Of a stretch of 64,000 nucleotides of DNA, positions 24,527 to 45,574 are shown one piece after another (positions within the stretch are counted from its first letter, which is position 1; every line of letters begins with the position of its first letter). Origin of the DNA: Escherichia coli (lineage in GTDB: Bacteria; Pseudomonadota; Gammaproteobacteria; Enterobacterales; Enterobacteriaceae); assembly GCF_051903065.1 (NCBI RefSeq), contig NZ_CP178438.1; one strand, given 5' to 3'. The notes below the pieces were generated by a model, which was not told where the DNA came from, did not search any database, and was given only the letters and a program-made list of their open reading frames with translations. The position numbers and the translations under genes are program-made.

Positions 24527-26707
24527 TTACTCTTTCTCGGAGTAACTATAACCGTAATAGTTATAGCCGTAACTGTAAGCGGTGCTGGCGCGTTTAATCA
24601 CACCATTGAGGATTGCGCCTTTAATATTAACGCCAGCCTGTTCCAGACGCTGCATTGACAAACTCACCTCTTTGGCGGTGTTCAGGCCAAAACGTGCAAC
24701 CAGCAGGCTGGTGCCGACAGAGCGCCCCACGACCGCAGCATCGCTCACCGCCAGCATCGGCGGCGTATCGACAATCACCAGATCGTAATGGTCGTTCGCC
24801 CATTCCAGTAATTGACGCATCCGATCGCGCATCAGCAGTTCAGACGGGTTAGGTGGCACCTGACCGCGAGTAATCACATCAAAGCCTCCTTTGCCAAAAT
24901 GCTGGATCACTTTGTTGAGCTCATCTTTACCTGCCAGATATTCCGACAAGCCATGTTCATTACTCACGGTAAACAGGTTATGCGAATAACCACGGCGTAA
25001 GTCGGCATCAATAAATAACACTTTTTGATCGGACTGGGCGATCACCGCTGCCAGAGTTGAACTGACAAATGTTTTACCACTGTCTGGCGTCGCACCGGTG
25101 ATCATCAGAATGTTATTCTCAGTCTCCATCATAGCGAAATGCAGACTGGTTCGTAGCGCACGTACGGCTTCCACAGCAGAATCCGCCGGGTTATCCACCG
25201 CCAGGAAGGGGATATTTTTAGTACGATGGCGCTGCTGATTAGAAAATAAATTTTTCTTACGCAGACGGGTGCGTTTATCCAGCCACTCGGACATCGGGAT
25301 GGTGGCATAAACGCTGATGCCGTGCTCTTCCAGTTGTTCCGGGGCTTCTACACCACGACGCAACATCGCACGCGCCAGCACGGCACCCACCGAAATAAAC
25401 AGGCCAAGAATAAAACCAAGCACCACATTCAACGCTTTTTTCGGTTTCACTGGCTGCGGCTGAGTGACTGCCGGGTCGATAATCCGCACGTTACCAATCG
25501 CACTGGATTTCGAAATACTCAACTCCTGCTGGCGGTTAAGTAATTGCAGATATACCGCACGGCCCGCTTCTACGTCACGACTTAAACGCAACACTTCCTG
25601 TTGGGTGGAAGGCATTGCCGATACCCGCTTATTCAGGCGTTTGCGTTCTTGCTCCAGCGTCTGGCGTTTTTCCAGCAGCGCACGATAAGTTGGGTGATCT
25701 TTCTTATACAGCTGGGAGATCTCTGCCTCGCGGAAGGTCAGCTCATTGAGTTGATTATCAACGTTCACAATCTGCTCAAGAACGGCTTTGGCTTCCAGGT
25801 TAAGGTCAACCGAATCGCGCTGCTGGCGATAAACGTTGAGTTTTTCTTCCGCCTGGTCCAGCTCGCTGCGCACTTCAGGCAACTGGCGCTGTAAGAATTC
25901 AAGGCTTTGTGAATCCTGCGCCGCCTGGCGAGCGATATTCTGTTGCAAATAGTTGTTAGCGATGCTGTTCAGTATACGGGTAATCAACTGGGGATCATCA
26001 CCGGTCATGGTAAGTTCCAGCATCCCGCTTTCTTTACTGCGTTCGCTAACGGTAAAGGTTTCCTGCAACGCGTTAATCGCTTCCAGTTCGGTACGTTGGC
26101 TCAGGACAAACTGTGTTCCTGGTTTGGCCTTAATATCCGCGATAGTCAGCGCAACGCCATCTTTTTCCAGACGCTGGCCGACCATACCATTGACGGTGAA
26201 CTCTTCACCTTCCAGCGTATAGTGGCCGTTTTCCCCAACCGTGAGTGTCAGTAGCTGATCCTGACCATTCAGTTGTGGAATATGCATCCAGCTGATCGCC
26301 AGCTCACCTGGTTTCTCTTTGGTTAATCTCGCCCAGCCGCGACCCACAATCGGAAAATACTTCTGCTCAACCATGTCGCGCAGATTCAGTTCAGCAATGG
26401 TTTTACCGAGAATCATGCGCGATTGCAGCAGTTGGATCTCCGGTGCAGACTCGGGCGATGAGTTAGGGATCATATCACTCAGGCCGCTGAGAATGGCGTT
26501 GCCCTGTTTTTGCTCAACCTGGACCAGAGTATCTGCCTGATAAATTGGTGTGCTTAACAGCGAGTAAGCGACAGCGATCAGCGTGAATAACGCGGTCACG
26601 CTGATAATAAACTTACGGTGATCCCATAACTCGCCGACCAGACGAAGCAGATCGATCTCATTTTCCTGAGTGCTGCCTGGTGGCGTATTCATATTTTTAG
26701 TTGTCAT
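24527..26707 (-). CDS. etk: Tyrosine autokinase (BY-kinase, Wzc paralog) of the group 4 capsule cluster
   Basis: 726-aa ORF with Walker A GKT and C-terminal tyrosine cluster YSYGYNYYGYSYSEKE. Confidence 0.95.
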   Translation of the reverse strand: MTTKNMNTPPGSTQENEIDLLRLVGELWDHRKFIISVTALFTLIAVAYSLLSTPIYQADTLVQVEQKQGNAILSGLSDMIPNSSPESAPEIQLLQSRMILGKTIAELNLRDMVEQKYFPIVGRGWARLTKEKPGELAISWMHIPQLNGQDQLLTLTVGENGHYTLEGEEFTVNGMVGQRLEKDGVALTIADIKAKPGTQFVLSQRTELEAINALQETFTVSERSKESGMLELTMTGDDPQLITRILNSIANNYLQQNIARQAAQDSQSLEFLQRQLPEVRSELDQAEEKLNVYRQQRDSVDLNLEAKAVLEQIVNVDNQLNELTFREAEISQLYKKDHPTYRALLEKRQTLEQERKRLNKRVSAMPSTQQEVLRLSRDVEAGRAVYLQLLNRQQELSISKSSAIGNVRIIDPAVTQPQPVKPKKALNVVLGFILGLFISVGAVLARAMLRRGVEAPEQLEEHGISVYATIPMSEWLDKRTRLRKKNLFSNQQRHRTKNIPFLAVDNPADSAVEAVRALRTSLHFAMMETENNILMITGATPDSGKTFVSSTLAAVIAQSDQKVLFIDADLRRGYSHNLFTVSNEHGLSEYLAGKDELNKVIQHFGKGGFDVITRGQVPPNPSELLMRDRMRQLLEWANDHYDLVIVDTPPMLAVSDAAVVGRSVGTSLLVARFGLNTAKEVSLSMQRLEQAGVNIKGAILNGVIKRASTAYSYGYNYYGYSYSEKE

Positions 26708-26726
26708 CGTATTTTATAAACTCAAA

Positions 26727-27173
26727 TTACCGGCTGAGGCGCTTCGCCCATTCCTGACTGGCGCGCTCCAACATACCGTAGACATGTTCAAATGCGTCCT
26801 GACTTTTACGATAGGGATCCGGGATCTCTTTCTGTTCCAGCCATTGCCCAAACAGCATTGTCTTCCCGCGGACCTCGGGAGCGATTGCGGTAACCTGAGC
26901 AATATGTTCCGACTCCATTGCCAGAATCAGATCGTAATTTCGTGCCATCTCAGCAGTGAGCTTACGTCCGGCATGTCCTTCAAGAGATACGCCATGATTA
27001 GCGGCAACATCTGCTGCTGTCGCATCTGCAGGGTGTTTTACCAGACCATGAACACCTGCCGATTTGACTTTTACGCCTGGCAGACGTTTACGCAGCAAGC
27101 GCTCGCCAATGGGCGAACGGCAAATGTTGCCGGTACAAACCACCAGGATTGAGTTAAATTTTAGTTGGGCCAT
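26727..27173 (-). CDS. etp: Low-molecular-weight protein-tyrosine phosphatase
   Basis: [27 protein letters not shown]... (CX5R P-loop); start trimmed to ATG 27173. Confidence 0.95.
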
Positions 27174-28300
27174 GTTTGAATCCACCGTGAAGTCTCTGTC
27201 AGGTCATGCACCCCGGAAATCGTCGGTACCAGCAGGGAAATCACACGGTTCCAACGAGCCAGCGGCGCGGTAGTGACATAAACAATGTCGTAAGGTTCAA
27301 GCTGGAATTCCGTTCCGAGTATCATTGCCGATGCGTCCTTCGCATTCAGCTGATAAATATTGGCGATTTTGCCATTCTGCTTGTTTTGCGTTGCACGAAT
27401 AACAAAAATCCCCGTCGCATCAGCGACATCCTGATTCATACCCTCAGCGTTACCCAGCGCTTCCGCCAGGGTCATACCGCTGCGGTCCATTTTCAGCGTG
27501 CTCTGTTTACCCACTTCACCCATCACGAAGACTTTCAGATCATCGTTGCGCGGAATAAATAAAATATCGCCCGGGTGCAGCAGTTTGTTCTGGCGCAAGT
27601 CGCCACGCTGCATCAGCGCATAGAGGTTCACTTTGGTCTTTACGCCATTCTGGGTGAGCACCACATTGCGCCAGTCTGCATCTGCGGTCAGACCGCCCGC
27701 GGCGTTAATCGCATCCATGATGGTCAGAGGAATATTGGTAATCGGCTGCTGACCCGATTTGCTGACTTCGCCGGTGACGTACGCTTTTTGCGAGCGGAAC
27801 GCCGCGACGCTGACATCGACCTGCGGGCTTTCAATGACTGAATCCAGACGCGCTGTAATCTCGTTGCGTACCTGGGTAAGTGTTTTCCCGGCCACTTTCA
27901 GGCGACCAATATAGGGGTAGAAAATCGCACCATCGGCGTTAACCCAGTTGCCGGTATCACTGGCGCTACGGTATTGCCCTGCGGGGGTGGTTAGTTCCGG
28001 GTGATCCCAGACCGTAACCATCAACACATCACCAATGCCGATACGATATTCATAGTTCGCGATTTGCTGCTCCAGCTCCGGGTTAGCCTGCGACATAATC
28101 GGTTTGGCGCGCAGCTGATCAATCAATCCTGGCGTGACGGGATAGATATTGACCATTTTGTCCAGGTCATACTGATTGTCAGGTAGTTCAATGACATCTT
28201 TGTTACTGGTCGATAAATTCTGACCAGGAACAAGGGTACATGCTGTCAAAGACAGAACAGCCAATGTCAGTACCGAAAACTTAAAAATGTTCTTTTTCAT
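27161..28300 (-). CDS. gfcE: Wza-like outer-membrane polysaccharide export lipoprotein
   Basis: [26 protein letters not shown]... (lipobox); overlaps etp by 13 bp. Confidence 0.93.
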
Positions 28301-28345
28301 TGGTTTATATTTATCAGTCAATGTAATGTTATGAATTACGTCAGG

Positions 28346-30442
28346 TTATTGTCCAACCGGTACTTCTCGCTCTGCCGTCATTGGATAGAGCTGGTATTTG
28401 CGTGACAGCATTTGTCCACCATCACGCGTCAATGGTGTCCACGAAACCACCGCGCGGTTGCGGTTAGGTCCAATGGTCATCAAGTCGAACGGAATCGAGA
28501 TATAAAAACCTTTACTAAAGCCGCCTTCGCCGTAGTCATCTTTAGATACGTTACTGATTGCCGCCCATACCCCTACCGCCACGCCGCTGTCAAAGCGTTT
28601 GGCGACGTCGATCGTTGCGCCTTTATCTTTTGCCAGATATTGCCCAACGCTAAGTTTCATCAGTACGCCATTGAGCGTCGGCGGGTTCCAGTAAGCCGTC
28701 ACGAAACCTGTGGGCGTGGAATAATCGGTGAAGCGCATCATGTTGTCCCAGTCACGTTGCTTCACGTAGTTAACGTCCACACCCAGCGCCCAGCTGGCAT
28801 CTAGCGGGCGATAAAGCAGCTCGGAACCGACACCGGCGTACATCGTTTCCAGATAACCGCCATACACCTGGCCATAGAAACCATTGCCTAAGTCGGCAAA
28901 GTAGTTCGCCTGCAAGTTGTTGAGATAAACGTCATTGCGAACGTAATCACGGATATGCGTGCGCACGCGGGGCAGGGTAGAGTCCGCGGGCAACAGTGAA
29001 GACTTAAACTTGTCGTAGTTGTTGTAAATATTGGTGAAAATACCGCCATCAAGCAGCAGGTGGTCGGTAAACCAGTAGCGGGCGCTGGACATCAGCCCCA
29101 GCTGGAACATATAGAAATCTTCCGGGCCGCCCAGCGACTGTGAAAGTGTTGGGTTGAAAGAGTAGCTAAAGCGATCTTCACGAATACGGTAGCCCCGACC
29201 AAAGGCAGAAAGATCTTCAGCTTCAACACGTTGTTGTTGCAGTGGCTCTGATTGACCAGGCGCTGTACCTGCCAGCTGTTTGCGCAGGCTGGCTACGTCG
29301 GTTTCGGTAGTCACCATCGCCATATGCTCGCGCTTTTGCGTCACGCTAATCTTCTCAACGCCTTGCGGCAGGTTATTCACCAGAATCCGGTTGGCACGAT
29401 CGACCGCTTCACGAGAGTCACGGTATTTGTATTGCTGACCAGACATATACAGCGTCTTATCGCGTAGCTGAATTTCTGGCGCGTCAAAGCCCGCGTTATA
29501 CTTCAGGGCGGTAAGTTGGTTTGCTACCGTGGTGTACTGCAATCCTTCAGATTCAGGCGCAGGTTGATATGCCGGTTTTGGCGTATCGCGCAGGGCAGGG
29601 CGCAGATCGTTGAAATTGGTCCGTAAAGTGAAACCAAACATCAACGTGTTACCGCGTTCATAACTCAGGTTGAGGTCTGCCCAGCTGGCAGCGCGATAAA
29701 CTGCACCGACGTTGAAATGGCTTGCCTGAGGCAGTTTGCCAGCGAAATCATTCTGGTAATTGTTGCCGTCGTATTCGAGTTTCAGACGCAGGGGATTCCA
29801 CGGCGTTTGATACTCAATGCCGCCAAAGATGGAGGCTGGGCCACGAAAGATATCGCTAAAGCTGATATCGCCCGCATCGTGAGACTCTGCGCGATGACAA
29901 TATTTATCGCTCACCCGGCAAAACGGGTTGGTAATATTGCCCGCATTACCGGCGTAGCCCCATGCCATCCCGAGGGTGAAATCAAATGGCCCCGCTTGCT
30001 TGCTGGCCACCAGATACTCACTGTCAAACCGACCCGTACCAGCAATATCACGTTTACCAAACGCCACTTGCGGTAGCCAGTAACCTTCTTCCCACAGGCG
30101 AAGTTTAAAATCGAATGATTTGTCTTTGTATGACTGATCGCCGCTGAAATCTTCCCACTGGCTATATTTGCGTGTGCGCACATCCGTATAACGAATGGTG
30201 CCTTCCAGCCATGGGAACAGCGCCACGGACGTGGAGTAGAAACGGTACTGATCGTTATCCCGGTAGTTGACGCTGAATTCACCTTCCGGTGCGATGCGCG
30301 CATTTGGCATCTGCAACAATCCTGTACCGCCAAAGTCCGATTGCGACGAACCCAGCGGATCCGGGTAGGTTAATACTTCAGCATGACAGGCACTGGAGAC
30401 GGCAATGGCCAGGCAGCTTAAAAGATAAGAATTCTTCTTCAT
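28346..30442 (-). CDS. gfcD: Group 4 capsule outer-membrane protein GfcD
   Basis: 698-aa ORF with signal peptide, conserved operon position. Confidence 0.9.
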
Positions 30443-31188
30443 CAGTCAGGAACACGTTGCGTTAAAACAGACACAATCTGGTCATTTAAATCAGCATATT
30501 TTTCGGGCAGTACATGCGCAGAAAAGCCTAACCAAAGCTGGCTGCCAGGCGGTGGTTCCACATGTCTTTTATTCCACAGGGCAACAGGGGCGACGACAGT
30601 CTCACCCTCAGGCGTAATCACGATAACGTTATTCTTGTCCGCGCCTGCAAGACGGGGGTGATCTTGCAGATAATCGGTAACGCTACGGCCTGCCTGCCAC
30701 GGCAATTGCCCAGCCCCAGAAACCGCACCCAGCAGAGTAATAGTCACCGGGCGCTGTACGGTATAGAGCGTATAGTCCCCGACCAGCGGGGGATTGCTGT
30801 TCTCATCCACTCGTACAAAATCAGGGTCCAGTTTGATCGGTAAGCGACCAGTGATATTGAGATTGAGTAACTGCTGGCGCACGGATTTAATCGTTGCCGC
30901 CACATCGTCGTCAGCTTCTGCTTCCCAGGAAGCAAGCTGTGCCATGACATGTTGGTAGTCTTTAAGCGCTTTAGCTTTCACCGCAGAGTCGGTCAGCAAG
31001 GCACCAGGCCACCAGAGGCGATCGCGCAGTTGCGGTTGTGTCACCAACTGGACAACATTTTCCACGGGGCCAACGGAAAGTGTCTGTTGTTCGCCAGGCA
31101 GATAAATAGTCACCGTTCCTTGCGCAAAGGCATGGGGTGTCATTACGTAAAGTACGCTGGCAATGAAATACGACTGTAATATATTCAT
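30442..31188 (-). CDS. gfcC: Group 4 capsule periplasmic protein GfcC
   Basis: 248-aa ORF with signal peptide [22 protein letters not shown]. Confidence 0.9.
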
Positions 31189-31829
31189 GGTGCGGGTTTA
31201 AGAAACGTCATTTCTACGGGAATAACCCCTGCGCCTAACATTTGTCGACTTTGACGAACCTGGCCAGTAGCCGAATCGACCCAGAATATGTTTTGCCACT
31301 GTTTTTCTGGCAGCGTGGAAGTCACCTCTTCCTGCCAGACATTACACAGCACATCGCGACCCGCAATATGCAGCGTCTCTAATCCAGCAAAGGAAAAAGT
31401 GGAACTCAGGGTCGCAGAGCGAAAATGGTTGTCTTCACTCCAGAGAATATCGCGCGTCCAGCGGCTGCCGTCTTTTATTGCCAGCGCGTTACGCAGAGGG
31501 TCCTGCCCGGAATTTGTCACTTCCAGCAGATTATTATTAAGTTTGACGGTCTTTAAAAGACGTCCATTGTGGGTAACCAGCATGGCGTTATCCTGGGATA
31601 ACCATTTGCTTTGTTCTTGTTCTATATATCCCAGTACCACAAAGATTCGTTGCCCTTCATTAAGGCGTAAATACATCGTGGAATAAGGCAACGCCTGGAT
31701 CTGCTGATCCGCTACGGTGATATCCTGATTATCGAAAAGGCTGGCGCGAAATGTATCGACCATACTTTGCTGGCTGTGCGTACATCCCGCAAGAAATAGT
31801 GCGAAAATCGATAAAATAAGAGGGCGCAC
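31185..31829 (-). CDS. gfcB: Group 4 capsule lipoprotein GfcB
   Basis: 214-aa ORF MRPLILSIFALFLAGCTHS (lipobox). Confidence 0.9.
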   Translation of the reverse strand: MRPLILSIFALFLAGCTHSQQSMVDTFRASLFDNQDITVADQQIQALPYSTMYLRLNEGQRIFVVLGYIEQEQSKWLSQDNAMLVTHNGRLLKTVKLNNNLLEVTNSGQDPLRNALAIKDGSRWTRDILWSEDNHFRSATLSSTFSFAGLETLHIAGRDVLCNVWQEEVTSTLPEKQWQNIFWVDSATGQVRQSRQMLGAGVIPVEMTFLKPAP

Positions 31830-31935
31830 CTTTAATCCTTGAAAGGTTAATTAAAAAAATGCAAATCTCTAAAGCCCGGTACGAATATCGCAACCGGGTA
31901 TTATTTAACTTTAATTTCGACGCGTTTAAGCAGAA

Positions 31936-32241
31936 TTAGCGCGTAGTGGACGTGGTGGTTGAGGTGTTATGAGAACCGCCATCGCCACTGTCATTTGCTG
32001 CAACTACTGCCAACGTCGCCACACCAACAGCCGTTGCCACACCGACAACTGTCGCCGTGCCGACAGCGCCAGCAGCCACGCCACCAGTGGTAGCAGCCGT
32101 CGTGGTTGCACCGGTAGTGGTCGTTGTGGTGCCAGTAGTACCCGTCGTTGCCTCGGTCCCGTTTGCTGCTTCAGGGGCAGCAAACGCAGCTGGCGTCGTC
32201 AACATGAAGGCCATAAGGATTGCAGAAAGCTTGTGTTTCAT
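31936..32241 (-). CDS. gfcA: Thr-rich small membrane protein GfcA
   Basis: ORF MKHKLSAILMAFMLTTPAAFA followed by Thr/Gly/Ala/Val low-complexity; start trimmed to ATG 32241. Confidence 0.85.
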   Translation of the reverse strand: MKHKLSAILMAFMLTTPAAFAAPEAANGTEATTGTTGTTTTTTGATTTAATTGGVAAGAVGTATVVGVATAVGVATLAVVAANDSGDGGSHNTSTTTSTTR

Positions 32242-32681
32242 AACTTTTCCTTTATTCATCGCATGGACAATACGTACGCTTGAGATCAGGATTGTCTACT
32301 TTGAGTATAACATCCTTGTGAAATCTCCCTTTCCTCATACCACTTGCACTATATACAGCGGGTGAGAAAGGCGCGCAGAGGGAAATATAAGATTGTTAAC
32401 GATTTCCCTCTGGAAATACGACTTGTAGGCATAAGATAAATCTTAGAAAAATACAAATTAAAGATAAAAAATTGTTAAGAAAGCTATTAACTATTGTTGG
32501 TGATATAGTTTCAAGTGGTACTATAACTGGCTGTTAAGTGGCATTTATAACTATTAGTTGCAGAGATATTCGGTTAAATGGATTAGTTTCCTGGTAAAAA
32601 AGTAACTTGCGTTCTAATGCATGGTGTTGACTATTGAACTATTCCAATAAAACCAGTCAGCTTTAAACAAGCAGCGTCATA

Positions 32682-32894
32682 TTAAGAGAGATAAACATTT
32701 GCCGCTGTTGGTCCTCGCAGGCCATTTACGCGACAAAATTCCACGCGTAATCCTGGTATAAGCACTTCTGCGTCGCGGGGAGTGAATGCGGAAATATGGA
32801 CCTGGACTTCTTTACGACCGTCGGAGGGGATAATGAATCCTTTGCCGCTTTTGCGATCAAAGGTTTTGACAATTCCTGTCATTTTACGGGACAA
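32682..32894 (-). CDS. cspH: Cold-shock-domain protein CspH
   Basis: 70-aa [40 protein letters not shown]... (CSD fold). Confidence 0.92.
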
Positions 32895-33180
32895 ACAAAT
32901 TCCTTACTGAAAATACTGCGCTGCACTATACGGGGTTAATAAAATAAAGCCAGCGATATTTAAGACCGCCGGACGGCTAAAATAAAATTTGCTTAATCTC
33001 AATTATCATGCGTTAATAGCTGCGTCGGTTTGAAAGACAGACAGCATACAAAGTAGTTTACTAAAGCAGTTCTCATTATCAGGCATTATCCCCTTCTTTT
33101 GAGTCTCTCTCCTGAACACTAAGTAGTTTCTGTATTAAAGCCCTGTTTGCCGAAAGGCCCAACAATGAAGGAAGTAAAAT

Positions 33181-33393
33181 ATGTCTAATAAAATGACTGG
33201 TTTAGTAAAATGGTTTAACGCAGATAAAGGTTTTGGCTTTATCACTCCTGATGATGGCAGCAAAGACGTTTTCGTCCATTTCACCGCCATCCAGAGCAAT
33301 GAATTCCGCACGCTGAACGAAAATCAGAAAGTTGAATTTTCTATTGAGCAGGGGCAACGTGGCCCCGCGGCAGCGAACGTTGTTACGCTCTAA
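33181..33393 (+). CDS. cspG: Cold-shock protein CspG
   Basis: 70-aa [41 protein letters not shown]... with RNP motifs. Confidence 0.95.
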
Positions 33394-35153: not shown

Positions 35154-37898
35154 TCAAATCGCGTTCAGGTCTTTCTTATGCAACCATGCTTCCAGAGCGG
35201 CAACACTGCGTGTAATTTCTTCGTGTGGAAGGGGGGCAGATAATGGCTGCTGCTCCAGTTGTGCGCATATCTGGCTGGCGACACGCATTCCCAGACTCGA
35301 GCAACTGCTTTTTAACTGATGCGCGGCACGCTTTATTTTCTCGCTATCCTGACTGGCGCGGGCAATGTCGATTTCATCGAGAAGCGGCAGGGCATGTTGT
35401 TTAAATAATGCCAGCCATTCGTGGATCTTCTCTGTCCCCATTAACTGAGCGTCTTCATTGAGTTGCGAGACATCCAGTGGTAGATCGTTATTGGCTTGCA
35501 GTTGGAGATAGTGCGCCAGTAACTGACCGAGCACTTCACGCGGCACCGGTTTAGGGATAATCCCGCGAAATAGTAAACTGGTACGCTGGCGCAGCGTTTC
35601 GTCAATGACATGGGCGCTAAAGCCAATCAAAACCAGCGACGGATATTGCTGTGCCAGTTGCCGGGCAAGGGTAATGCCGTCGATATCCGGCAGATCAAAA
35701 TCCACCAGTGCGGCAGCAAACGGTTCGCTATTTTGCAGTGTCTCTAAAGCCTGCGCGGCATTGCCAATAGCAACAACCTGCGCACCACTGGTGTTCAGCA
35801 TCTCAACGGTAATTCGCTGGGTTAGCGGGTTATCTTCAATTAACAGCAAACGTAAACCGTCAAGACGCACCGCCTGATTGACTGTTTTTGGCACGGGTGC
35901 CGTGGCAACACGTAACGGCAAGCGTAAACAAAAACAGCTTCCAACCTCCGGCGTGCTGGTGGCGCTCAGTTCGCCGCCCATCGCCTGGGCCAGACGGCTA
36001 CTGATAGTCAGCCCCAGCCCGGTGCCGCCGCGTTTGCCGCTTACCTGCACAAATGGCTGGAAGATTTCTGCCAGTTTCGCGGGATCAATACCGCAGCCGC
36101 TGTCTTCCACTTCGACCAGCCATTGCTCGCCATCAGTGCGGCTACGTAAAACGATCTGCCCTTCGTCAGTAAAACGTAGGGCGTTGCTCAACAGGTTGGT
36201 TATAACCTGACGAATACGTCGCGGATCGCCCATTAACGCAGTCGGTACATCGTCGGCCATTTCAGTTGTCAGGCGAATCGGCCGACCTTTCACCCGTCCG
36301 CTCATTAATTGCAGGGTACTTTCCAGCAGCGGGCGCGGTTCAAAGGGCTCATCGCTGACCGAAACATTCTTGCCACCTGCTTCGATAGCGGAATAATCGA
36401 GAATATCGTTGAGGATGGTCAGCAACGATTCGCCGGAGTCGGTAATTGCCCGCAAATCATCACGCTGGGCGTTAAGTGCGGGGTTATCTGCCAGTAGCTG
36501 TGCGGTGCCGAGAATACCGTACAGCGGTGTGCGGATCTCATGGCTCATCGCCGCCAGAAACGCCGATTTTGCCTGGCTGGCTTTTTCTGCTTCCGCCCGT
36601 GCTTGTCGGTGTTCTATCACCAGTTCCTGCAATTCAGCTGTACGCGCTTTGACCTGTGCCGCCAGCTGTTCGCGGTGGCGATTCAGTGCATGAACACTGC
36701 TGCGAAACGCATCCATCAGCCGCCCGATGGTGTCCAGCTCCCGTACACCAGCGGTTTCCGGGAAAGGGGAGTCAATATCACCGTCCAGCAGCCGTTGCAG
36801 CGCCTGCGTTTGTTCGGCAAGTGGACGCGTGACTGAGCGATAAACCACGCGCCAGAGGATCAGAATCAGTGCGCAAAGTGAAACCATCCCCAGCAATAAC
36901 AGGCTGTATTGCCCGCGTGCACTGGCTTTTTCCAGATGCGCCAGTCCATGCTGATTGCGCAGCTCAATGGTGTCGACCAGCTGACTGACTTCGCTACTAA
37001 ACAGCGCGAACTGGGCGATATTATTTTGGGCGAGAGTTTGCAGGTGATTGCTGATTTCACTGTCCTGCTGGAACAGCGCCAGCAAATCGCTATATTGGCT
37101 AACGGTAGTTAACGTTGTTGCGACCTGCGCACGAACTCCCGGATCTTCAATGCGTATTTGCCGACGTTGCAGAATTTTCACCGCATTATTGAGCTGCTTT
37201 TCCAGCGTTGGTGCATTTTTCTGGAGCTGCTCCAGCCCCAGATTCATCACCATTTGCTGCACCCGCAGAGCGCTAAGGCGCAGTTCATTCATCTGGTTAA
37301 CATACTCAAGATCGATATCAATCAGCCGATCGAGTGCACTTTCAGCAGCCTGACGCTGATGTTGTTCGATCAAATCGTAAATCCCGGCCTGGGTCGCTCC
37401 GGCGGAGGTTGCCGCATTATTCGCCTGACCTTGCGCCAGGCGTGCGATCTCATCGGCGGCAGCGACTATCTGCTGACTGAGTTGCTGTTGTTGCTGGCGC
37501 AGTTGCAAACGCTGCCCCACCAGTTCCCCTTGCTGACGTAACGAACGGGAGATCTCCTGCTCCTGTTGTTCAATAGCGGTGGTATCAAAACCTTGTTCCC
37601 GTAACGCTTGCAGCAACGCATTAATCTTCAGGCTTTGTGCGGTGAGCATTCGCCCCTGCGCCTGCCACATCTTTTCGTTATCGGCACTGGTCAGGTTCTG
37701 CGCGGCGAAAAGTTCCCAGGCGCTGGCTTCGCTCAACTGGCGCGCCATATTCATGGTAGGAATCAATGCCTGAGTATTGTCTTTTTCCACCTGGCTGATA
37801 AAGCGCAGGTTGTACCATCCCACCAGGGTACTGGTCAGGGTTAACAGCGCCATCAGGGCAAAGCCCATCCAGAGTCTTCGGGTCAGGGTTAAATTCAC
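35154..37898 (-). CDS. torS: TMAO-sensing hybrid histidine kinase
   Basis: 914-aa ORF with HisKA/HATPase, receiver and HPt domains. Confidence 0.95.
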
Positions 37899-37980
37899 GG
37901 TCGGTGCACTTTAGGTGAAAAATGTTGAGTCGCAAAGCGGAATGCATCTAGCATAAAGTCTTATTATTGATGAGGCTATC

Positions 37981-39009
37981 ATGCGCGTACTGCTATTTTT
38001 ACTTCTTTCCCTTTTCATGTTGCCGGCATTTTCGGCTGATAACCTGTTGCGCTGGCATGATGCGCAGCATTTCACGGTGCAAGCCTCTATGCCGCTAAAA
38101 GCCAAACGCGTATGGAAACTGTGCGCGCTTTATCCCAGCCTGAAAGATTCATACTGGTTATCGTTGAACTATGGTATGCAGGAGGCTGCTCGCCGCTACG
38201 GTGTGGATTTAAAAGTGCTGGAGGCAGGCGGCTACAGCCAGTTGGCTACCCAGCAAGCACAAATCGACCAGTGTAAACAGTGGGGCGCAGAGGCCATTTT
38301 GCTCGGTAGTAGCACGACGTCATTTCCCGATCTGCAAAAGCAGGTAGCAAGTCTGCCGGTGATCGAACTGGTAAATGCTATTGATGCTCCCCAGGTGAAA
38401 AGCCGCGTTGGTGTACCCTGGTTTCAGATGGGCTATCAACCTGGGCGATATCTGGTGCAATGGGCGCACGGTAAACCACTGAACGTGCTGTTGATGCCCG
38501 GACCCGATAACGCCGGGGGCAGTAAGGAGATGGTCGAGGGTTTTCGCGCAGCCATTGCCGGAAGCCCGGTGCGTATTGTTGATATTGCGCTCGGTGATAA
38601 CGATATTGAAATCCAGCGTAACCTGTTGCAGGAGATGCTGGAACGCCATCCAGAAATCGACGTCGTTGCCGGAACGGCCATTGCGGCAGAGGCGGCAATG
38701 GGTGAAGGGCGCAACCTGAACACGCCGCTTACCGTGGTGTCGTTTTATCTTTCACATCAGGTGTATCGCGGGCTGAAGCGGGGAAGAGTGATTATGGCTG
38801 CCAGCGATCAAATGGTCTGGCAGGGGGAACTGGCGGTTGAGCAGGCCATCAGGCAGTTACAGGGGCAATCGGTGTCTGATAATGTCAGCCCACCGATTTT
38901 AGTTCTGACGCCGAAAAATGCCGACCGAGAACATATCCGCCGCTCGCTGTCACCGGGGGGATTTCGTCCGGTCTATTTTTATCAGCACACATCAGCGGCT
39001 AAGAAATAA
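37981..39009 (+). CDS. torT: Periplasmic TMAO-binding protein
   Basis: 342-aa ORF with signal peptide MRVLLFLLLSLFMLPAFSA, periplasmic binding-protein fold. Confidence 0.95.
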   Translation: MRVLLFLLLSLFMLPAFSADNLLRWHDAQHFTVQASMPLKAKRVWKLCALYPSLKDSYWLSLNYGMQEAARRYGVDLKVLEAGGYSQLATQQAQIDQCKQWGAEAILLGSSTTSFPDLQKQVASLPVIELVNAIDAPQVKSRVGVPWFQMGYQPGRYLVQWAHGKPLNVLLMPGPDNAGGSKEMVEGFRAAIAGSPVRIVDIALGDNDIEIQRNLLQEMLERHPEIDVVAGTAIAAEAAMGEGRNLNTPLTVVSFYLSHQVYRGLKRGRVIMAASDQMVWQGELAVEQAIRQLQGQSVSDNVSPPILVLTPKNADREHIRRSLSPGGFRPVYFYQHTSAAKK

Positions 39010-39674
39010 CCTTCGCCATGTTGTGTCACCAGTAAATCCGCGCTGAGTTTATGGCGTAAACGACGAATTAACACATCGACGGTGCGCAGGTCAGGGTTTT
39101 CCACCCGACGCGCAGAGAGCATACGCAGCAGACGTTCACGGCTGAGAATTTCTCCCGGATTCGTCACAAATGCCACCAACATTTCATACTCTGCGCGGGT
39201 CAGTTTAATCGGCTCACCATCCCGCTCCAGCGTATGGCGCGACACATTCAGGCAATAACCCGCAAAGCGATAGCAGTTGTCCTGAGTGAGCGGTTGAACT
39301 TGTCGCGCGAGGTCGATTCGCCAGAGCAGATTTTTTACCCGTACTACCAGTTCGCGCAGTTCCAGCGGTTTGGTGACGTAATCGTCTGCGCCCATTTCCA
39401 GCCCAACAATACGGTCAATCCGATCGCTGCGTCCGGTAACCAGAATAATCCCCACCGTTGAGCGTTCTCGCAGGGCGCGGGTTAACATCAGGCCATTTTC
39501 ATCGGGCAAGTTGATATCCAGCAGAATTAAATCCACCGGCTGATTCTGCATAATTTCCCGTAGCCCGGCACCGCTCGCCGTAACGGAAACGGTATACCCC
39601 TCCTGAGTGAAGTAGGATTGTAATCGCGCCTGGGTAACCGGCTCATCTTCAACAATAACAATGTGATGTGGCAT
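38982..39674 (-). CDS. torR: Response regulator TorR (OmpR family)
   Basis: 230-aa ORF MPHHIVIVEDEPVTQARLQSYFTQEGY...; 3' end overlaps torT by 28 bp. Confidence 0.95.
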   Translation of the reverse strand: MPHHIVIVEDEPVTQARLQSYFTQEGYTVSVTASGAGLREIMQNQPVDLILLDINLPDENGLMLTRALRERSTVGIILVTGRSDRIDRIVGLEMGADDYVTKPLELRELVVRVKNLLWRIDLARQVQPLTQDNCYRFAGYCLNVSRHTLERDGEPIKLTRAEYEMLVAFVTNPGEILSRERLLRMLSARRVENPDLRTVDVLIRRLRHKLSADLLVTQHGEGYFLAADVC

Positions 39675-44148: not shown

Positions 44149-44678
44149 TGAACTGCACCCCAAATGTTGGACATAATCTGACATCTGAAGGTGCAGTTTA
44201 TGAAACATTCATTTGAAGTAAAACTTGCCGCTGTAAATCATTACCTGGCCGGTCATGCAGGCATCATTTCTACGGCAAAACTCTTTCAACTTTCTCACAC
44301 CAGCCTCTCACACTGGATTAATCTTTTTCTTCTTCACGGTCCTCAGGCACTGGATTGCAGACACAAGCGTAGCTATTCTCCTGAAGATAAACTTTGCGTG
44401 GTTCTTTATGCTCTCGGGCATTCTGAGTCTCTACCCCGGGTAGCTGCCCGGTTTAACATTCCCAGCCACAACATGGTTAAAAACTGGATAAAAGGCTACC
44501 GCAAATCTGGTAATGAGGCCTTTATCAGGCGCAGGAAGGAGAAAAGCATGACCCGTTCTGATGATACCCATGAAAACGAGGCAAACATGACGCCGGAAGA
44601 GATGAAGAATGAGCTGCGTTATCTTCGCGCAGAAAATGCATATCTGAAAGCCATGCAGGAGCATCTCCTGGAAAAAAA

Positions 44679-45574
<896 letters not shown>

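Follow-up and report, generated by a model that had tools for sequence, protein, structure and literature searches.

The 440 bp that separate gfcA from cspH in this Escherichia coli genome, positions 32242-32681 of the analysed stretch of 64,000 nucleotides (the window), very probably represent the ordinary, ancestral cspH-gfcA intergenic region, in which gfcABCDE-etp-etk, the operon for export of the group 4 capsule, has its native promoter and regulatory sites. ORF coordinates, base composition and the alignment with K-12 define an uninterrupted interval of exactly 440 bp, in which no insertion sequence was found; its G+C content is 35%, with values of 30-34% across 32300-32700, compared with 51.6% for the whole 64-kb window, and the description given in an earlier note (about 440 bp, IS-free, AT-rich) is thus accurate. 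On the one side the interval is bounded by the gfcA coding sequence (31936-32241, minus strand, 101 amino acids, ATG at 32241-32239), which was assigned from the ORF list, the RefSeq annotation of a near-identical genome and 98% identity to GfcA of enteropathogenic E. coli (EPEC), and on the other side by cspH (32682-32894, minus strand), assigned from the ORF list and the same annotation. Because cspH and gfcA are transcribed in the same direction, the interval doubles as the 3' flank of cspH; cspG lies beyond cspH in divergent orientation, at 33181. The near-identical genome is that of E. coli 23CRST027 (NZ_AP045789.1; human faeces, Ecuador), from which the window differs at 4 positions over 64 kb, and its annotated order reads appA, etk, etp, gfcE, gfcD, gfcC, gfcB, gfcA, cspH, cspG. 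A Shine-Dalgarno sequence, AAGGAA (32247-32252, minus strand), could be read directly 5 nt before the gfcA ATG and is invariant in all ten sequences aligned for this study (eight E. coli lineages, Escherichia sp. MOD1 and E. albertii). Two short ORFs inside the interval, of 31 and 35 amino acids, were discarded as spurious, the 35-residue one spanning a 23-bp deletion present in strain G5. Instead of the disrupted K-12 allele, the isolate accordingly has the locus for group 4 capsule export in its usual and potentially functional form, a result of little importance past annotation; along the way, the map of the region was corrected, with selection placed on a promoter-proximal block and on a LuxR-type palindrome, and the target site of IS1D was determined exactly.

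The comparison with K-12 locates this target site to the base. BLAST of the window against a K-12 chromosome returned two flanks (97.6% and 95.2% identity) with a 9-bp overlap and a 768-bp insert between them; upon direct reading, the insert was found to have canonical IS1 ends and the 9-bp sequence GACAATACG duplicated on both sides, and the annotation of MG1655 (NC_000913.3) places IS1D at 1049778-1050545. The window has a single copy of GACAATACG at 32266-32274, which represents the empty IS1D target and precedes the gfcA ATG by 25-33 bp. The earlier note had placed an IS1 copy upstream of gfcA in K-12 that is missing here, and had named alignment with K-12 as the appropriate check; that alignment bears this out, with the IS1 position corresponding to window 32266-32274 and K-12 not being uninterrupted. 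The difference in IS1 between K-12 and other strains is already known: an IS1 in the ymc/gfc promoter of K-12, absent in pathogens, has been described (PMC2516531), and IS1D has been placed within the gfcA promoter region (PMC12428005). Despite this IS1, etk is apparently expressed in K-12 under some conditions (PMC2516531).

How common the uninterrupted state is among E. coli was surveyed in 5,426 complete genomes, with the site defined by 120 bp around the IS1 target. Within the 3,614 complete genomes having the site, it is uninterrupted in 3,194 (88%); the K-12 gfcA-IS1 junction was recovered from 416 genomes, or 389-391 under a stricter threshold. Almost all of the 60 junction carriers that were sampled are laboratory K-12 derivatives, such as MG1655, W3110, BW25113, J53, DH5alpha, JM109 and MC4100. 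The operon is wholly absent from ≈ 1,800 genomes, with cspH adjoining appA in the sampled rows of that class. Absence of IS1 is the usual state in E. coli and not a distinctive property of the window; K-12 is the exception, in which IS1D separates the entire upstream region from gfcA.

The genes downstream of the interval are complete. All seven, in the order gfcA-B-C-D-E-etp-etk, lie between appA and cspH, an order common to NZ_AP045789.1 and to the capsule-positive EPEC strain E2348/69. In a tblastn search with the seven E2348/69 proteins from GfcA to Etk every residue was covered, gap-free, at 96.8-100% identity; gfcB, gfcC, gfcD, gfcE, etp and etk (24527-31829, minus strand) are full length, and the near-identical genome carries no pseudogene flags for them, so that the claim of an operon with every gene intact holds. 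The O-antigen genes, which lie outside the window, were sought in NZ_AP045789.1, where wzx, wzy ('O38 family'), glycosyltransferases, wzzB and ugd are annotated, again with no pseudogene flags; a colanic-acid locus is present in that genome as well. As far as can be read from the sequence, the genotype permits an O-antigen capsule, with production depending on conditions and on the strain. To this extent the earlier prediction that the strain can make a group 4 capsule is justified, the operon being intact, the upstream region native and a Wzx/Wzy cluster present in the near-identical genome, but it was overstated, as E. coli O157:H7 has the same arrangement and no visible capsule. An intact region is no guarantee of a capsule, because the region is uninterrupted in enterohemorrhagic E. 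coli (EHEC) O157:H7 as well and yet, in one study, ≈ 30-fold less gfcA mRNA than in EPEC and no visible capsule were found (PMC3853201). Along these lines, group 4 capsule (G4C) genes have been reported to differ between EPEC subpopulations and to be tied to high-salt conditions in EPEC (PMC12456302). If a capsule were expressed by the present isolate, it would be relevant to sensitivity toward serum, defensins and phages and to the masking of the type III secretion system.

Which parts of the interval are under selection was assessed from the ten-sequence alignment. A scan for GfcB, with one genome per species, gave four loci, and the upstream DNA of Cedecea and Citrobacter could not be aligned with that of the window; consequently, the footprinting is based on comparison with E. 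albertii and a single further Escherichia species and on short words in common. The most conspicuous feature is a nearly invariant promoter-proximal block of 99 bp (32242-32340, minus strand), a putative core promoter with 5' leader, which is 94.9% identical to E. albertii and thereby exceeds the gfcB coding sequence (90.6%), cspH (87.3%) and the gfcA coding sequence (78.8%). Embedded in it is TGTTATACT (32304-32312, minus strand), an extended -10 element with a sigma-S-type TATACT hexamer (32304-32309), invariant in 10 of 10 sequences including E. albertii. TATACT is the -10 hexamer preferred by sigma-S. No good -35 element is paired with TGTTATACT, and a simple sigma-70 consensus scan gave no promoter-like site on the gfcA strand. 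By genomic SELEX in K-12, a peak for the RpoS holoenzyme, with an intensity of 167.2, was located at 1049830 between insB and cspH (PMC5493296); after checking of the coordinates against the MG1655 annotation, this peak corresponds to approximately window position 32327, within roughly 100 bp on either side, and in K-12 it adjoins IS1D. Transcription might thus begin near 32297, from TGTTATACT, and yield a leader of ≈ 56 nt, the promoter being of a weak -35, sigma-S/sigma-70 extended -10 type. We give this assignment, which is based on conservation and on a SELEX peak of ≈ 100-bp resolution, an even chance of being correct; the K-12 IS1 would then split the TGTTATACT promoter from gfcA. A second candidate just upstream of the palindrome described below (TTAACA ... 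TGTATT/TATTTT) was rejected (no -11 A, or a 19-20-nt spacer).

Experimental limits for the promoter can be taken from Shigella sonnei, for which Caboni et al. deleted g4c and restored the capsule with a clone that carried the operon 'with its own promoter' (PMC4368438). The primer at the upstream end of this clone, CAGCCAGTTATAGTACCACTTG, given in the same paper, matches the window exactly at 32512-32533 (minus strand). Since the fragment starts at 32533, a promoter sufficient for restoration of the capsule must lie within 32242-32533.

The second conserved feature within these limits is the palindrome TAAGATAAATCTTA (32432-32445; TAAGATTTATCTTA on the gfcA strand), which, from its consensus match and its conservation, is a candidate operator for a regulator of the LuxR/FixJ family akin to RcsB or YjjQ. 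No other sequence in the 64 kb matches TN(G/A)GAN4TC(T/C)NA, the RcsB-box consensus (PMC7913699). The palindrome is invariant in 9 of the 10 aligned sequences, E. albertii included, and was lost from strain G5 by the 23-bp deletion; a counterpart, TAGGATTTATCCTA, is located upstream of gfcA in Cedecea colo. Furthermore, it is identical at 12 of 14 positions to TAGGAAAAATCTTA, the box upstream of flhD. The RcsB box of flhDC sits just downstream of the flhDC transcription start. In this context YjjQ deserves mention, reportedly a LuxR-type repressor of flhDC, gfc, ompC, yfiRNB, ybhL and ymiA-yciX, whose binding site at flhDC is reported to overlap the RcsAB box (Wiebe et al. 2015, J Bacteriol 197:2713).

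With these reported targets, a shared-word test was carried out, in which the 14-mers upstream of gfcA were compared with the upstream regions of flhD, ompC, yfiR, ybhL and ymiA. The palindrome emerged as the best 14-mer common to gfcA and the five other promoters reported to be repressed by YjjQ, a score reached in 11 of 1000 shuffles by any 14-mer and in 1 of 1000 by the palindrome itself. The pattern derived from it, TARGATNNNNC, occurs in 5/5 of these promoters and in 0/5000 shuffles, and among nine control spacers it was present only upstream of the paralogous yjbE. A description of yjjQ as a repressor of capsule-formation genes is also available (bioRxiv 10.64898/2026.05.27.728231). On balance, it seems probable that the palindrome TAAGATTTATCTTA modulates gfc transcription, most plausibly as a LuxR/FixJ-type operator, with YjjQ as the most likely ligand and RcsB or RcsAB as the alternative; the regulator bound at 32432-32445 would act on transcription of the gfc operon. 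With a start at 32297 the palindrome would be centred near -141, a distance that is far for a repressor, so that the real promoter may lie closer to the palindrome. Its conservation is, moreover, open to other readings, because it resembles an AT-rich nucleation sequence for H-NS as well.

This resemblance leads to the best-placed of the other explanations, according to which the AT-rich tract serves mainly as a platform for binding and silencing by H-NS, and differences in expression between strains reflect H-NS and counter-silencing instead of a specific operator. The composition is suitable, with 30-34% G+C over ≈ 300 bp against 51.6% for the window. TCGATAAATT is a high-affinity H-NS motif, and the central AGATAAATC of the palindrome resembles it. 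The 30-fold difference in gfcA mRNA between EHEC and EPEC, despite nearly identical sequences, would fit as well (PMC3853201). Yet in the RpoD SELEX table, where many neighbouring spacers are marked 'HNS', the listed gfcA spacer is unmarked, and plain AT-richness explains neither the exact invariance of the palindrome nor its matches in five other promoters. While H-NS binding to the tract of 30-34% G+C is possible, we therefore consider it unlikely, if deserving of attention, that silencing by H-NS is the main function of the region.

A somewhat less likely proposal keeps the specific operator and assigns it to RcsB or RcsA-RcsB as activator, in which case the Rcs phosphorelay would induce gfc, as it does colanic acid, in response to envelope or osmotic stress. 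The paralogous yjbEFGH operon is also Rcs-dependent, and a related box, TAGGATTAACCTCA, is found upstream of yjbE; the palindrome itself is a perfect and conserved match to the consensus TN(G/A)GAN4TC(T/C)NA. The link of EPEC G4C genes to high-salt conditions (PMC12456302) points in the same direction. Against this, expression of ymcD (gfcA) was increased 1.48-fold in an O157:H7 isolate with disrupted rcsB, in which strongly RcsB-dependent genes were down 24-33-fold (PMC5343319); although this concerns one strain and one condition, it speaks against activation by RcsB in that setting. Furthermore, a literature search yielded no paper linking RcsB to the group 4 capsule. Activation by RcsB is therefore rather unlikely, and a LuxR/FixJ-type operator with YjjQ as its most likely ligand remains our preferred assignment of the palindrome.

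Between the proximal block and the palindrome, two further elements attracted attention. The 12-mer GCGCGCCTTTCT (32365-32376, minus strand) is also found upstream of gfcA in Cedecea colo, at -135 from the ATG here and at -145 there; it is invariant in all aligned E. coli and differs at one base in E. albertii. It is followed by an inverted repeat, CAGAGGGAAAT-N15-ATTTCCCTCTG (32376-32412), which was detected by a repeat search and is perfect in the allele of the window, with a predicted RNA fold of -14.4 kcal/mol (z = -3.4). Escherichia sp. MOD1 and E. albertii share the perfect repeat, while the left arm has one or two uncompensated mismatches in K-12, O157:H7 and EPEC; an essential conserved hairpin is ruled out by these mismatches, which occur even in capsule-positive EPEC. 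It is doubtful, too, that the repeat acts in a less stringent sense, as a functional hairpin or a dimer-binding site that could terminate or insulate read-through from cspH. In its favour one may count the perfect 11-bp stem with its z-score of -3.4, the perfect state in lineages as divergent as those of the window, Escherichia sp. MOD1 and E. albertii, and the outcome of a terminator scan with folding, in which no other terminator was seen after cspH, but the stem lacks a following U-run, is 270 nt past the stop codon of cspH and has uncompensated mismatches in the left arm in K-12, O157:H7 and capsule-making EPEC.

To a similarly low degree of likelihood, the 99-bp block, the inverted repeat and GCGCGCCTTTCT could together make up a cis-regulatory leader of the group 4 capsule operon that is as yet uncharacterised, for example a long, GGA-rich 5' UTR under post-transcriptional control. 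If this were true, allelic differences, for example between a perfect and a degraded repeat, might help to explain the large differences in capsule expression between strains whose operon is equally intact. Searches for known elements gave the following results. A permissive Rfam covariance-model scan of 31800-33300 returned no match within 32242-32681 at E ≤ 1. The sole real Rfam match in the scanned stretch was the cspA thermoregulator, located in the leader of cspG. The ops core GGCGGTAG, known from the JUMPStart/ops leaders of RfaH-dependent polysaccharide operons, is absent from the 500 bp upstream of gfcA; a consensus terminator scan combined with folding produced no convincing intrinsic terminator after cspH; and RNA folding of the cspH 3' flank and the presumed gfcA leader was comparable to that of shuffled sequences (z = +1.2, -0.3 and 0.0).

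The feature singled out in the earlier note was a different one, namely repeated (T/A)AACTATT motifs as candidate regulator sites or curved-DNA elements. As a matter of plain occurrence the words are there, with AACTATT at 32489, 32549 and 32637 and GACTATT at 32629, but the pattern as first written fits only two of them, those in TAACTATT at 32488 and 32548, the other two reading GAACTATT and TGACTATT, and the repetition is within chance. All are on the plus strand. The first copy (32489-32495, in TAACTATT from 32488) reads AATTATT in four of the E. coli lineages, K-12 among them, and is altered in E. albertii. The second (32549-32555, in TAACTATT from 32548) is kept in all eight aligned E. 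coli, with one mismatch in E. albertii. The third and fourth are adjacent (32629-32643), GACTATT at 32629 being followed by GAACTATT with the 32637 copy, and are situated close behind the 3' end of cspH; K-12, O157:H7, EPEC and E. albertii all have a broken version of the 32637 copy. E. albertii has no intact copy among the four (0/4), and only the 32549 copy persists throughout E. coli. The distal segment that contains three of the four (32541-32681) is the least conserved part of the locus, with 54.6% identity to E. albertii.

The statistics of repetition point the same way. In 2000 dinucleotide-preserving shuffles of the 440-bp interval, some 7-mer occurred at least three times in 352 (17.6%) and some 6-mer at least four times in 378 (19%), and over the whole 64-kb window AACTATT was found 6 times against 5.7 expected. 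Since the complementing fragment from S. sonnei starts at 32533, the copies at 32549, 32629 and 32637 lie outside it and are dispensable for restoration of the capsule from that plasmid. Control of gfcA through these words, whether as sites bound by a regulator or as phased elements of curved DNA, is very improbable: three exact copies and one GACTATT do fall within 155 bp of one strand, AACTATT itself reached three copies in 0/2000 shuffles, and the 32549 copy sits in a block, GTTATAAATGCC, kept across E. coli, but the word was chosen post hoc from a background in which some 7-mer reaches three copies in 17.6% of shuffles and some 6-mer four copies in 19%, three of the four copies are broken in at least one E. 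coli lineage and in E. albertii, the segment holding three of them is poorly conserved, three lie beyond the fragment that restores the capsule, and the spacings of 60, 80 and 8 bp are off the helical repeat. The AACTATT words owe their repetition to chance in AT-rich DNA, and most of them fall within the poorly conserved 3' flank of cspH; the regulatory role proposed for them does not hold, and it is the proximal block and the LuxR-type palindrome that deserve attention as regulatory elements.

Among known systems, the flhDC promoter offers the closest parallel for the palindrome. Its RcsB/RcsA-RcsB box, TAGGAAAAATCTTA, shares the 12 of 14 bases on the opposite strand, and both sequences fit TN(G/A)GAN4TC(T/C)NA; the flhDC box is situated 194 bp upstream of its ATG, whereas the gfc palindrome is a candidate site. 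The yjbEFGH exopolysaccharide operon encodes products paralogous to GfcA-D, as reflected in the annotation of gfcD as 'YjbH domain-containing protein', and it possesses, as gfc does, an AT-rich upstream region with a related half-palindromic box, TAGGATTAACCTCA. It is, on the other hand, a different locus, without etp or etk. The two operons differ further in that yjbEFGH is reported to depend on Rcs. For gfcA, in contrast, there was no fall in the rcsB-disrupted O157:H7 isolate (PMC5343319).

The gfcA::IS1D allele of K-12 has the same genes and the same flanking sequence as the window (95-98% identity), from which it is distinguished by the 768-bp IS1D between two copies of the 9-bp GACAATACG; at this position, 25-33 bp before the ATG, the window has the empty site. 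The nearest relatives are the gfc loci (g4c, ymcDCBA-yccZ-etp-etk) of EPEC O127:H6 E2348/69, EHEC O157:H7 and S. sonnei, with the same seven genes in the same order and an uninterrupted interval of 440-441 bp; O157:H7 is 98.1% identical to the window over 1,051 bp (31900-32950), a stretch that takes in gfcA and cspH with the interval between them. Every well-studied gfc-positive strain has both the proximal block and the LuxR-type palindrome, and the block, TGTTATACT and the palindrome are identical between this comparison set and the window. Throughout the interval the window departs from these three by point differences only, and in its own allele the inverted repeat at 32376-32412 is perfect, a T-run is shorter by 1 nt, and G is exchanged for T 2 nt upstream of the palindrome.

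At least 99% identity to the window over 31900-32950 was found in only 58 of 5,405 genomes. The gfcA upstream allele of the window's lineage differs from that of other E. coli in three respects. Its inverted repeat at 32376-32412, between gfcA and the conserved 14-bp palindrome at 32432-32445 (a candidate operator of the RcsB/YjjQ type), is perfect; the base 2 nt upstream of this palindrome is changed from G to T; and the T-run near 32465 has lost 1 nt. In strain G5, isolated from seawater in Lebanon, a 23-bp deletion corresponds to window positions ≈ 32421-32443; it takes out ≈ 12 of the 14 palindrome bases together with adjacent bases. Strain G5 is a natural mutant, which could reveal the role of the palindrome.

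On the minus strand, a second in-frame ATG at 32259 would extend GfcA by six codons at its N-terminus (MNKGKV-MKHK...). Because this upstream ATG lacks a Shine-Dalgarno sequence, preference is given to the annotated gfcA start, 32241. The whole gfc-etp-etk operon is absent from ≈ 1,800 of the 5,426 complete E. coli genomes; in the sampled members of this class, cspH directly adjoins appA, and similarity to the window ends ≈ 100 bp downstream of cspH, whose boundary on this side is at window position 32682.

In the near-identical genome of E. coli 23CRST027 (NZ_AP045789.1), a gtrA/gtrB/gtrC-like O-antigen glucosylation module lies outside the window at 2531455-2534116, with phage remnants alongside, and this module could modify the polymer forming any group 4 capsule. 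Within the window, the cspG leader on the plus strand (33024-33300) matches the Rfam cspA thermoregulator (RF01766) with 136.9 bits, the match being truncated where the searched stretch ends. Between torD and cbpM, the transposase of the IS3-family element IS1397 is located at ≈ 44200-45548 on the plus strand, as annotated in the near-identical genome; in the regions compared from K-12 and EPEC E2348/69, it was not seen at this position. The torS gene is intact in the window's lineage, unlike in E2348/69 (35679-39590 of the comparison locus), where it is frameshifted and a prophage integrase is immediately adjacent. Cedecea colo carries TGCGGTAGCGCG at about -118 from the gfcA ATG, a sequence resembling the ops element GGCGGTAGnnTG found in polysaccharide operons that depend on RfaH; nothing comparable precedes the E. 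coli gene.
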